A stretch of 64,000 bases of DNA from an uncultured Clostridium sp. GTDB taxonomy: Bacteria; Bacillota; Clostridia; TANB77; CAG-508. The position numbers were made by a program, and so were the translations under genes. Every line of letters begins with the position of its first letter. Position 1 is the first letter of the stretch. Below are positions 36,729 through 54,726 of the stretch, piece after piece. The notes beneath the pieces are model-generated. The model was not told where the DNA came from and ran no database searches. It was given only the letters and a program-made list of their open reading frames with translations. The stretch lies in NCBI GenBank assembly GCA_964449925.1, contig CAYVCM010000001.1:10306-74305 (forward strand), written 5' to 3'.

Positions 36729-39700
36729 CTATAGAACTTTTCTTTTTATCAGGACAATTCCTGTTCCCATCACTGCTAACAAGGTTACTCCTAAACCACC
36801 ATACATCCAGTATTTAATTGTTTCATCACTACCTGTTGGTGGTGTGATTGTTACAATTAAGTAATCATCATCTGGTTCATTTCCTTCAACTGTTATATAT
36901 TTATCTGGATCATCTGGATCATCTGGATCTGATTCATATGTAACATTTTCTGTCGGGTCATAGTTACCTGGTGTTGAATCTATTGGTTGACGATTCTTGT
37001 ATGCTACAATTTCTACATCATTTTCATAGCTTAAATCATCATTTGTTATTGATAATTGTCTAGAAGCGACAATGTTTGCTGATGCTGTACTGCTTGGTGT
37101 CATACTAGCAAATAGTTCTTTTCCGGTTTCTGTTAAATGTATTATATTGCTTAAATCTTTTACTTGTTCATAAACTATCTCTGATAAATATCCACCTTCA
37201 TACCATTCTTCAATATCATCGATTAATTCCCAATTCTCGTTTGCTACATTATCTGATTCAAATACCAAGCCTTCTGGCAAATAATCGAAAATGTCTGTTA
37301 CGGTTGCTATTAGGTAATGATCTTCTGGATTATCTGGCACAGTTCCGTAAATATAGTAATCCTCTGTATCATAGTCTATTTCACAACCAGAATTGTCTAC
37401 TGTAATTGCATATGTTACGGTTAATGTAGCTCCTTGAATCAATTCGCTATCTATTTCCATATAGACATTATCGTCTATCACTCTTACATATGATAATGGA
37501 CTGTCAGTTTCCCCTTCTGGTGGGTTTGGATCTCCATCAATTAAACTACTACCATTTGATAATTGAACTTTAATATTAGATACTGTTTTATCAACTTCAA
37601 TTGATTGTTCTGGTCTTTCTATAATACCAAAGTCGATTTGGTCAAATACCCATACTAAATTAGTATCATATTCACTAACACTTGTATAATAGTCTGTTTC
37701 TAAACCATCTGAGTCATAATCATAATCTTCGACATCATAATTATAATCATAATCAACTTTTATATTAAACAGTCTAGTATCTGCATAAATTTCTGTAAAG
37801 CTAGTTTCACTTTCTGTTATAGTAGCATTGTTTATAAGTGTTCCACCTGTACCGTCTAAATTTCCACTCGTTCTAGAATCAATTACATCATCATTATCTT
37901 TTGCATCTGATAATCTTGTTTCTTCTATTCCACTTGTTTCGCTTTGATACCAGTAATCTCCTGGATCACTTGAATCTCCACCTCTATATATTGTTGACTT
38001 ATAATCATCTACATCTATATTGTATAATTCGTCTCCGTCCGAACTATATACAACACTGTCATCTCCATATGTATACCTTATAAAATAATTATCTGGTATT
38101 ACTCCAGAGAATGTATAATTTCCACTCATGTCTGTTGTAGTTGTTGCATCTACTGTTACTAAGTCATCATATACATTTTCACCTATTTGATATAGGGTTG
38201 CTAATTCATAACCTCCAGAATCTAAAGGTACTAGTAATTCTACTGTTACATTTTCAACAACACTTTCGCCTTCATCATATATACCATTACCAATTCTTTG
38301 ATTTTGTTCTAACCATTCTGATAATGCTTCATCTTCCCATACAGTACCTGAAATTACTCTTCCTTCTTGTAATTCAAGTATGATAGATGGTGCTTTATCT
38401 GAGTCATCTTCTGTTGTATCTGTTATATCTATTTCTCCATCATCATTTTTAGTAACTACTACTGTATCTGGTGCAGAGTCAATATCAATTCCTGCAAGTG
38501 GTGCAGTTGCAGTCTCATCTGTGTATGATGAATATGAAGCAATTTCTATAACAGAATCTAATGTCTGATCTTCATTTAGAATCGCATTTACTGCATCATT
38601 ATCTAGTTTATATTCAATTATCAATTCTCTTGTTTCCCCTGGTGCTAATAAATAATTTGCCTCAATAACCACTTGTTTCATTCCTGTTCCATCGTCAAAT
38701 GTTTGACTATAGTCTGTACTGTAATATGATGTTATCTCCTGACCATATTCTGTAATAATTTCATATTCATCATCTCTAGTTAAACCATCGTCACTATATA
38801 CAGCCATTACTGTATATCTGTCATCATAGTAATTTGATAATGTATTGACACTACTATATACAGTAGAAGATTCGTTTCTTATTTGTATTGTATAACGAAT
38901 ACGAATATCTAATTCACCAGCATTTTCTGATTCTTGATTCCATATAATGTCTGATGAATATACTGCTCTTGAATATGAATTTGATATATATTTACTAGCA
39001 AATTTTACACTAACATTAAACGGATCTCCACCTGCATATTCTTCAGGATCCAAATATCTTTGTGCATATTGGTATGTATGTGTATATCCATTTAAACTTA
39101 TTTCTACATTTTCTACATCTTCTACTACTGCTAAGTCTGGTCTATCTCTTCTATATACACCTAAGTTTACTCCACCAATTTCTACAACTCCATTTTCTCT
39201 GATATCATCTGGTGTTAAATCTGTACATAATGCATTTGTTGTACTTGTAGATGTTAAAGCTGTTAATGTATATTGTTCATATACATTTGCAATTGGGTAT
39301 GTTTGTCCTTCGTATCCATATAATACTTCATCTCCCCAAACTACACTACTAGTATGATTTTCCTCATCAAAATCATATGTAATATCATATGTTTTATTAC
39401 CTCCTGAATCAGAAGATATTCCTTGACTAATTGTTGCATATTTTTCATTAAATTCTTCTCTAAATGATTCATCTGATGCTTTATTTGTATTTCCAGTTAA
39501 GTATGTAATTGTACTACCAGTAGATGTTGTTTCTGTATAAGTATCAAAACTTGTATTAACTTCTATTGATTGATAACTCATACCATTATATTCAAATTCA
39601 ACATATGCACCAACTAAATCATCAATTTCTAAATGAATTGCATCTTCATCTTCATCATAGTTACCAAATATATATTCACCATTTTCATCTGTAATAGTTT

Positions 39701-54726: not shown

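Follow-up and report, generated by a model that had tools for sequence, protein, structure and literature searches.

Why are two giant surface-type proteins encoded by separate genes in one half of a locus and by a single open reading frame (ORF) in the other? This question is raised by positions 36729-54726, on the minus strand, of a 64-kb stretch of DNA from an uncultured Clostridium sp. (the window, meaning the whole of that stretch), in which the minus-strand order is mreC, mreD, a class B penicillin-binding protein (PBP) gene and minC, then three very long ORFs, then spoIIE. The first two ORFs correspond to a pair designated A' and B' (pair 1) and the third to a second pair, A and B (pair 2). 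In silico analyses make it reasonably probable that the locus consists of two operons, each encoding one A-type and one B-type giant surface protein of the fibrillar-adhesin kind, with the B-type protein resembling TIE adhesins and with the fused product of pair 2 being cut at the hairpin that joins its halves.

The fused second pair

A preliminary description of this DNA had placed four separate genes between minC and spoIIE. These flanks, the minus-strand orientation of A' and B' and their sizes (1642 and 1323 aa) proved exact; A and B, given there as ~1490 and ~1420 aa, form one stop-free ORF with parts of 1399 and 1512 aa. The main features are as follows.

55917-56528, minus strand: minC, flanking the adhesin locus
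49798-54726, minus strand: A' gene, 1642 aa, a separate ORF
45805-49776, minus strand: B' gene, 1323 aa, a separate ORF
45702-45777, minus strand: perfect, terminator-like hairpin of 36 bp with A-tract and T-tract flanks (-60.7 kcal/mol, z -14.8)
36729-45464, minus strand: A-B fused ORF, 2911 aa plus stop codon, in frame and stop-free
41268-45464, minus strand: A part (aa 1-1399), colinear with A' by profile comparison
36732-41267, minus strand: B part, 1512 aa, with a short Cys-bearing N-terminal region and SpaA and SdrD_B-like domains
34031-36457, minus strand: spoIIE, the other flank of the locus

The gap between A' and B' is 21 nt long and contains a strong AGGAGG ribosome-binding site for B'. 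Read from its first GTG, the fused ORF extends over 36729-45476 and is stop-free throughout; its likely start is the ATG at 45464, with GGAGGGG just upstream, and the exact 2911-aa product exists in public data as an independently called gene. The two pairs are separated by an intergenic region of ca. 340 bp that contains the 36-bp hairpin, which suggests two transcription units. The passage from A to B within the fused ORF is built from four segments, the second and fourth of which are putative transmembrane segments (TM1 and TM2).

41382-41396, minus strand: internal anchor motif SVSTG (aa 1357-1361), in the context ...IISVSTG
41313-41381, minus strand: TM1, the A-type anchor helix, 23 hydrophobic residues (aa 1362-1384)
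41268-41312, minus strand: basic loop KKKHINIRKVLRIGK (aa 1385-1399, 15 residues), net charge +7, with no acidic residue
41208-41267, minus strand: TM2, MIVFVLVFSTIVFS followed by QQITEA (aa 1400-1419), an internal signal-peptide-like segment with a T-E-A site

After QQITEA the B part continues as AYYYQ..., and the junction sequence of the window contains neither a stop codon nor a ribosome-binding site. For comparison, the B family was searched against one genome per species, which gave 339 related stretches, and the best 79 loci were examined; all are uncultured gut Clostridia bins or draft assemblies (e.g. Clostridium sp. CAG:343). Most of them have the genes in the order minC, A', B', A, B, spoIIE. 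Wherever both are intact, A' and B' are separate ORFs, while the A and B genes of pair 2 are separate in 33 loci and form one ORF of about 2200-3190 aa in about 25.

The 25 fused junctions share one design, in which the motif [IL]I[SG][VIL]xTG is followed by a TM1 of 22-23 residues in nearly all cases, a loop of 9-16 residues with a net charge of +3 to +7 and no acidic residues, a TM2 of 14-17 residues in most cases, and then a polar residue and a small-x-small site. In 11 of the 25, the loop and the start of TM2 offer no in-frame ATG, GTG or TTG, and a start codon with a ribosome-binding-like pentamer upstream was found in only one. The intact separate-type and A'-B' junctions listed all have GGAGG or a close variant, then an ATG 1-27 nt from the A stop. 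The B part of the fused type, being devoid of a ribosome-binding site and often of a start codon, is thus made only within the A-B polypeptide. A HMMER search (all-against-all) of the window junction region against 1.84 billion cluster representatives further detected the same internal hairpin in at least 44 proteins, which are 2000-4200 aa long and each stand for one 50%-identity cluster; TM1 measures on average 22.0 +/- 1.6 residues in these clusters and the uncharged part of TM2 15.4 +/- 2.0. The junction shared by 25 genomes and these clusters indicates that the A-B fusion is a genuine and widespread architecture and not an assembly error. It had been missed in the preliminary description, as had the thioester-domain fold of B' (see below). 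A homopolymer frameshift at the A/B junction, where an alternative frame gives a TAA overlapping an ATG, was considered and rejected after genome comparison.

Gene fusion is classic evidence of functional coupling. In every cassette type, including distant loci with two or three pairs, B comes after A, and this constant order together with the fusion in one type supports a functional coupling of the two proteins. The coupling had been proposed in the preliminary description, and no A-type gene without its B-type neighbour was encountered among the loci with sufficient sequence beyond A.

Domains, sorting signals and a proposed mechanism

Domain searches returned surface-protein folds for all four proteins, and the modules named in the preliminary description are present, namely DUF11, SdrD_B and a C-terminal DUF11-like domain in A and A', and SpaA and SdrD_B/CarboxypepD_reg modules in B and B'. 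Each of the four closes with a membrane helix followed by a basic tail, as had been noted there for A and A'. The A-type features are listed below, all on the minus strand.

A' aa 1-34: signal peptide, read from the sequence
A' aa 876-985 and 1156-1258: CLIPPER/DUF11 domains, from the domain search
A', between CLIPPER/DUF11 and SdrD_B: acidic linker
A' aa 1306-1406: SdrD_B domain, from the domain search
A' aa 1484-1583: C-terminal DUF11-like domain, from the domain search
49801-49917: anchor of A', with SVKTG (aa 1604-1608), hydrophobic helix and KRK tail, read from the sequence
A aa 1-35, within 41268-45464: signal peptide, followed by a beta-rich region
A aa 624-727: CLIPPER/DUF11 domain, from the domain search
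A aa 1064-1168: SdrD_B domain, from the domain search
A aa 1238-1345: C-terminal DUF11 domain, from the domain search

CLIPPER is the new name of DUF11, a CnaA-like stalk domain of fibrillar adhesins with an internal isopeptide bond (PMC12617251). Stretches matching CLIPPER (PF01345) above or near threshold number three in A' and two in A, with TIGR01451 matches as well, and the occurrence of this domain within long secreted proteins bearing a sorting region gives A and A' the architecture of fibrillar adhesins. In an AlphaFold2 model (mean pLDDT 84.5), A' aa 1-1100 form an all-beta chain of about 9-10 sandwich domains. By BLASTP the alignment of A with A' is limited to the last 340 aa (43% identity), and a profile-profile comparison aligned A 59-1361 to A' 199-1608 with a probability of 100%, an E-value of 2e-128 and 30% identity; judged by their profiles, A and A' are homologous and colinear almost from end to end. 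B and B' show 32% identity over about 1200 aa, so that the paralogy of both A/A' and B/B' announced in the preliminary description stands.

The A-type module that this description had reported elsewhere in the window was also recovered.

10413-10922, minus strand: A-type C-terminal remnant, 169 aa, with a DUF11-like domain, TVSTG, membrane helix and basic tail, and with no signal peptide

This remnant matches A with an E-value of 2e-12. It lies in a decayed islet (9652-10922, minus strand) between gdpP (11020-13044) and rplI (8702-9148), in which two ORFs of 87 and 57 aa also resemble gene fragments by appearance. The CLIPPER-like C-terminal domain of A was further matched in 13-26 repeated stretches of proteins of 4000-7400 aa (e.g. 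P0367, P0403 and P0427), which are giant repeat adhesins unrelated to the A-B pairing.

The B-type proteins combine a distinct N-terminal region with SpaA/CnaB-type domains and a C-terminal signal (minus strand throughout).

48877-49692: thioester-domain-like fold of B', aa 29-300, assigned by fold and motifs
49624-49626: codon of B' Cys51, in F-C-V-E
B' aa 111-117: helix PVQNAIW, of the TQXX-hydrophobic-W type
48934-48936: codon of B' Gln281, in Y-Q-N-L-I
48541-48858: SpaA/CnaB-type prealbumin-fold domain of B', aa 307-412
45808-45921: sorting signal of B', with TPNTG (aa 1286-1290), hydrophobic helix and KKKVLKK tail
41103-41105: codon of the B Cys, in Y-C-M-N (Cys in 24 of 25 fused-type relatives)
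40671-40673: codon of a conserved B Gln (Gln in 25 of 25 fused-type relatives)
Within 36732-41267: SpaA domains of B, at B aa 231-318 and a second one after it
Within 36732-41267: SdrD_B-like modules of B, at B aa 494-545 and 993-1077
36732-36845: sorting signal of B, with TPPTG, hydrophobic helix and KRKVL tail

For a model of B' aa 1-430 (mean pLDDT 87), the best solved match is the Bacillus anthracis TIE protein (Foldseek E 6e-15), and the model has the beta-barrel and helical lobe of a thioester domain with the beta-sandwich insert of class II. Thioester domains are defined by a universally conserved Cys in a [YFL]C-hydrophobic-hydrophilic motif, a TQXX-hydrophobic-W helix and a distal Gln in a hydrophobic-Q-hydrophilic-hydrophobic-hydrophobic motif (PMC6194298), and B' shows all three. 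In B', Cys51 agrees with the [YFL]C-hydrophobic-hydrophilic motif and is present in 41 of 41 orthologues, the Trp of the PVQNAIW helix is invariant in the alignment, and so is Gln281, which lies 230 residues after Cys51 (195 in BaTIE). As the partner of a putative thioester bond, Gln281 is a better candidate than Gln113 of the PVQNAIW helix, which was rejected because its motif is not the bond-forming one (PMC6194298); Gln113 is replaced by Ala in 15 of the 41 orthologues.

B and B' share SpaA/CnaB-type domains and SdrD_B/CarboxypepD_reg-type modules. Profile comparison of their N-termini gave a probability of 97.6%, for the beta-sandwich part only. In the B-family alignment, invariant Lys, Asp/Glu and Asn positions are candidates for isopeptide triads. 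Some B-type variants in relatives (L087, 10001-15715; L005, 10001-14164; L086) bear extra modules, namely ricin-B lectin domains (P0138) and a dockerin-type calcium-loop match (P0209), and the lectin-bearing ones fit a binding function. In L086, B-type and A-type genes alternate through at least two successive pairs, and a further CLIPPER-bearing gene begins at the end of the locus.

With few exceptions, the C-termini of intact A-type and B-type proteins consist of a motif, a hydrophobic helix and a basic tail, and the motif differs between the two types. Among A-type termini, 104 of 108 have S[IV][RK]TG with helix and basic tail, with proline at position -2 in only one. B-type termini mostly show TPxTG (of the 116 with a motif, 100 have Thr at -3 and 94 have Pro at -2), and all 116 have the helix and at least two basic residues. 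The B-type proteins thus carry cell-wall sorting signals, together with signal peptides read from the sequence, and look like ordinary sortase substrates. Sortase SrtB of Clostridioides difficile cleaves (S/P)PXTG (PMC4155245), and TPxTG being of this clostridial sortase B kind, the B-type proteins are probably linked to the cell wall.

In the mechanism that we propose, the B-type protein would present its N-terminal thioester-type domain on a stalk of SpaA/CnaB, SdrD_B and CLIPPER-like domains that holds it off the cell, the A-type protein would form long beta-sandwich chains, and both would have in common a wall-proximal base of SdrD_B and CLIPPER-like domains. If active, the thioester head of a B-type protein would bind its target covalently. 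In the fused type, the N-terminal signal peptide would export A, the anchor helix TM1 would halt the transfer, the short and strongly basic loop would remain cytoplasmic, and TM2, the former signal peptide of B, would restart export until the C-terminal signal anchors B. This four-segment topology is a prediction based on the positive-inside rule and on where each segment comes from. A cut by signal peptidase after TM2, and possibly one by sortase at S[IV]xTG, would then free A and B separately, in a 1:1 ratio, at the same site and as the equal of the products of the separate types. It is tentatively suggested, with somewhat less than even confidence, that the fused type is a natural bacterial 'polyprotein', whose hairpin joint derives from a sorting signal and a signal peptide, so that one event of translation and export delivers both proteins and signal peptidase, possibly with sortase, separates them; such a bacterial precursor would carry both a sorting signal and a cleavable signal peptide in internal positions, in an arrangement kept in at least 44 protein clusters from a widespread lineage of uncultured Clostridia of the human gut.

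Several observations weigh against the proposed mechanism. No Pfam or NCBIfam model of a thioester domain or LPXTG anchor scores on these proteins, names of anchors, pilins or thioester domains being absent from the NCBIfam results, and at sequence level no solved thioester domain was matched, a profile search against PDB sequences having yielded SpaA-type domains only; the thioester-domain call consequently rests on fold and motifs. The head of the B part is shorter than that of B' and lacks the helical lobe. In A' no binding or tip domain is recognisable, Foldseek of its N-terminal model having given generic multi-Ig arrays only. The A-type motif is proline-free and directly abuts the membrane helix, and SrtB did not cleave the nearest known motif, the NVQTG of C. 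difficile CbpA, in vitro (PMC4155245). Neither the window nor 1.85 Mb of flanking sequence from 85 loci contains a sortase-like ORF, so that anchoring would depend on an enzyme encoded beyond the sequence examined. Finally, the assembly contains at least one probable frameshift elsewhere, in mreB (see below).

The fused product might instead stay uncut; it would then be a single giant membrane protein whose two extracellular arms are fixed by the TM1-loop-TM2 hairpin and the C-terminal anchor. This is unlikely, but it retains some probability since the A-type motif, without proline and similar to the uncleaved NVQTG, may not be a sortase site; the strict conservation of the hairpin and a positive loop compatible with a stable cytoplasmic turn also agree with it. 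It is opposed by the signal-peptide-like character of TM2, whose uncharged part has ca. 15 residues against 22 for TM1, and by the polar residue and small-x-small site that follow, [AVSTIC]x[AG] being found after TM2 in 86% of junctions versus 35% of random windows from the same proteins. Moreover, the other cassette types make the same two proteins separately.

The preliminary description had suggested a heteromeric fibre, which in sortase-built form would be a two-component A-B fibre or minimal pilus, with the Thr of S[IV]xTG in A joined to a lysine of B and B fixed to the wall via TPxTG. It found no direct support and appears distinctly unlikely. Pilus loci normally encode their own sortase, and no pilin-specific sortase was found in the window or in the gene tables of related loci, nor any sortase in the flanks mentioned above. 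The YPK pilin motif is absent from A', B', A and B, no PK column is conserved in the B' family, and the matches to pilins stem from CnaB-type domains, which non-pilus adhesins frequently contain as well.

The two pairs among related loci

Identity over full length was measured across the 41 loci with complete data, PBP serving as the housekeeping reference.

PBP: mean identity over length 0.74
A': mean identity over length 0.56; correlation with PBP identity 0.92
B': mean identity over length 0.60; correlation with PBP identity 0.83
Pair 2: mean identity over length 0.28; correlation with PBP identity 0.32

The identity of pair 2 can fall to 14-20% between species with PBPs that are 93-95% identical. 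DNA alignments of the window with fused-type relatives extend over the entire locus, whereas the similarity to separate-type relatives ends at the B' stop and resumes at spoIIE. These correlations and breakpoints indicate that pair 1 is conserved and vertically inherited and that pair 2 lies in a slot, bounded by the B' terminator and spoIIE, whose content is replaceable. In relatives, hairpins of 12-21 bp with A-tract and T-tract flanks are common in the same intergenic region, mostly right after the B' stop; the 36-bp hairpin of the window is unusually long and coincides with the left edge of the variable slot.

About four types can be distinguished among the pair 2 sequences; one of them includes every fused ORF, with L040 an apparent frameshifted member. 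The fused type is scattered over the PBP tree, which, with its confinement to one type, points to a single origin of the fusion, after which it would have spread or persisted. Five loci lack pair 2 (L028, L031, L078, L082 and L084), A'B' being directly followed by spoIIE; L028, L031 and L082, with PBPs of sufficient length for placement, lie near the base of the PBP tree, L078 inside it, and L084 is not on the tree. With single-pair species mostly near the base, the second slot may be a later gain. The recurrence of the gene order bears out the old duplication, with both pairs kept, that had been read from the window; pair 2 is indeed a retained pair, yet not a simple second copy, as its slot is variable and hosts about four types.

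A different role, as structural components of the envelope or of the spore surface, may be considered since the position between mreBCD-PBP-minC and spoIIE is kept in all relatives and pair 1 is core and vertically inherited. We regard it as very unlikely because gene neighbourhood alone is weak evidence, Pfam scans showed no S-layer or wall-binding modules, and a thioester-type head, an isopeptide-type stalk, lectin-bearing variants and a hypervariable pair 2 are typical of adhesins.

Read as adhesin genes, these sequences account for 18 kb of a small genome, and the lineage turns up in many samples of human gut metagenomes, which makes the genes likely main determinants of gut attachment; one B-type protein was found in 255 blocks of a public collection. 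The presence of the fused type in a slot swapped between species suggests selection on what the cells stick to, and the combination of a conserved and a replaceable pair offers a simple marker of strain- or species-level binding differences. The fusion also provides a case in which the handling of a mid-protein sorting signal by the Sec machinery, signal peptidase and sortase can be tested, as can the question of whether A and B act as a 1:1 unit.

Relation to known systems and neighbouring features

The domains and the general class are already known from TIE adhesins, CLIPPER-stalk fibrillar adhesins and clostridial sortase substrates. B' resembles the TIE adhesins with class II thioester domains (Bacillus anthracis BaTIE, PDB 6fwv; Enterococcus faecium EfmTIE86) in its fold, Cys motif, TQXX-hydrophobic-W-type helix and distal Gln motif, and in having CnaB-type domains after the head and a C-terminal xPxTG signal. 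It differs from them in being 2-3 times longer, with two extra SdrD_B and CLIPPER-like modules, in that no thioester-domain sequence model scores on it and in always lying directly after an A-type partner gene; in the fused gene, the head of the B part is no more than a reduced one bearing Cys and Gln. A and A' are similar to the CLIPPER-stalk fibrillar adhesins (Costa et al. 2025, PMC12617251) by their Ig-like chains with CLIPPER/DUF11, signal peptide and C-terminal sorting region, but have no recognisable adhesive tip, carry the proline-free S[IV]xTG abutting the helix and have an obligatory B-type partner. Among C. difficile SrtB substrates, those with (S/P)PXTG correspond to the B-type TPxTG, helix and basic tail, and the NVQTG of CbpA is resembled by the A-type S[IV]xTG; here, however, no sortase lies in the flanks examined and the fused-type signal is internal instead of C-terminal. 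CnaB/SpaA folds and several surface-protein genes per operon are also found in sortase-assembled Gram-positive pili (SpaA, Spb1, EbpB, CppA), from which the present system differs by the lack of a pilin motif and of a sortase in the flanks examined and by proteins about three to five times larger than the matched solved pilins.

The statement of the preliminary description that no such system has been named therefore holds for the pair and not for its parts, which belong to TIE adhesins and CLIPPER-stalk fibrillar adhesins. The obligatory A-B pairing, the conserved pair beside a swappable one and, above all, the hairpin-joined in-frame fusion appear to be undescribed in the literature searched; nothing relevant on internal sorting signals or sortase-substrate polyproteins was found there, an absence that is not proof of novelty. 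The remaining features around the locus are given below.

59298-60113, minus strand: mreC, flank gene
58751-59293, minus strand: mreD, flank gene
56576-58714, minus strand: class B PBP, flank gene
54952-55885, plus strand: two small ORFs between minC and A'
54808-54836, minus strand: best sigma-70-like promoter match upstream of A', TTGAAA-17-TATAAT, 11 of 12 consensus positions
36670-36692, strand unassigned: palindromic, terminator-like hairpin 3' of the fused ORF

The promoter match is one to a consensus only, and the total of such matches in the region is not above shuffled expectation. The two small ORFs are Asn-rich, the second with a hydrophobic C-terminus, and have no Pfam or NCBIfam match. 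They are kept beside minC in nearly all relatives that reach that far, and were set aside as components of the system, being without family match and present also in single-pair genomes.

In the window mreB is split (60131-61199, minus strand) into a 73-aa N-terminal ORF that ends at a stop codon (60978-61199) and a 260-aa ORF (60131-60913) that matches the MreB profile only from position 77, which reflects either an assembly-error frameshift or a broken essential gene. A frameshift being probable, details seen in a single genome deserve caution. That the single A-B ORF might likewise be an artefact or a decaying gene, having lost the A stop through an assembly error or recent mutation, as this draft assembly with its split mreB, the alternative frame at the window junction with its TAA overlapping an ATG and the frameshifted junction of L040 could suggest, is scarcely credible, since the in-frame junction occurs in 25 genomes of different projects and contig-naming styles as well as in 44 or more 50%-identity clusters, L009 and L048 have homologous loop sequences, and B stays open for 1500 codons without a ribosome-binding site and often without a start codon.

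Two further observations concern the neighbourhood at large. Following spoIIE, a WG-repeat protein (506 aa) and a 413-aa protein without family match are encoded at 31200-33981 (minus strand), in an arrangement kept in relatives. Finally, a 163-aa ORF with a PemK/MazF-like toxin domain (17261-17752, minus strand) lies between rpoB (17848-21600) and rpoC (13621-17220), which are normally neighbours.

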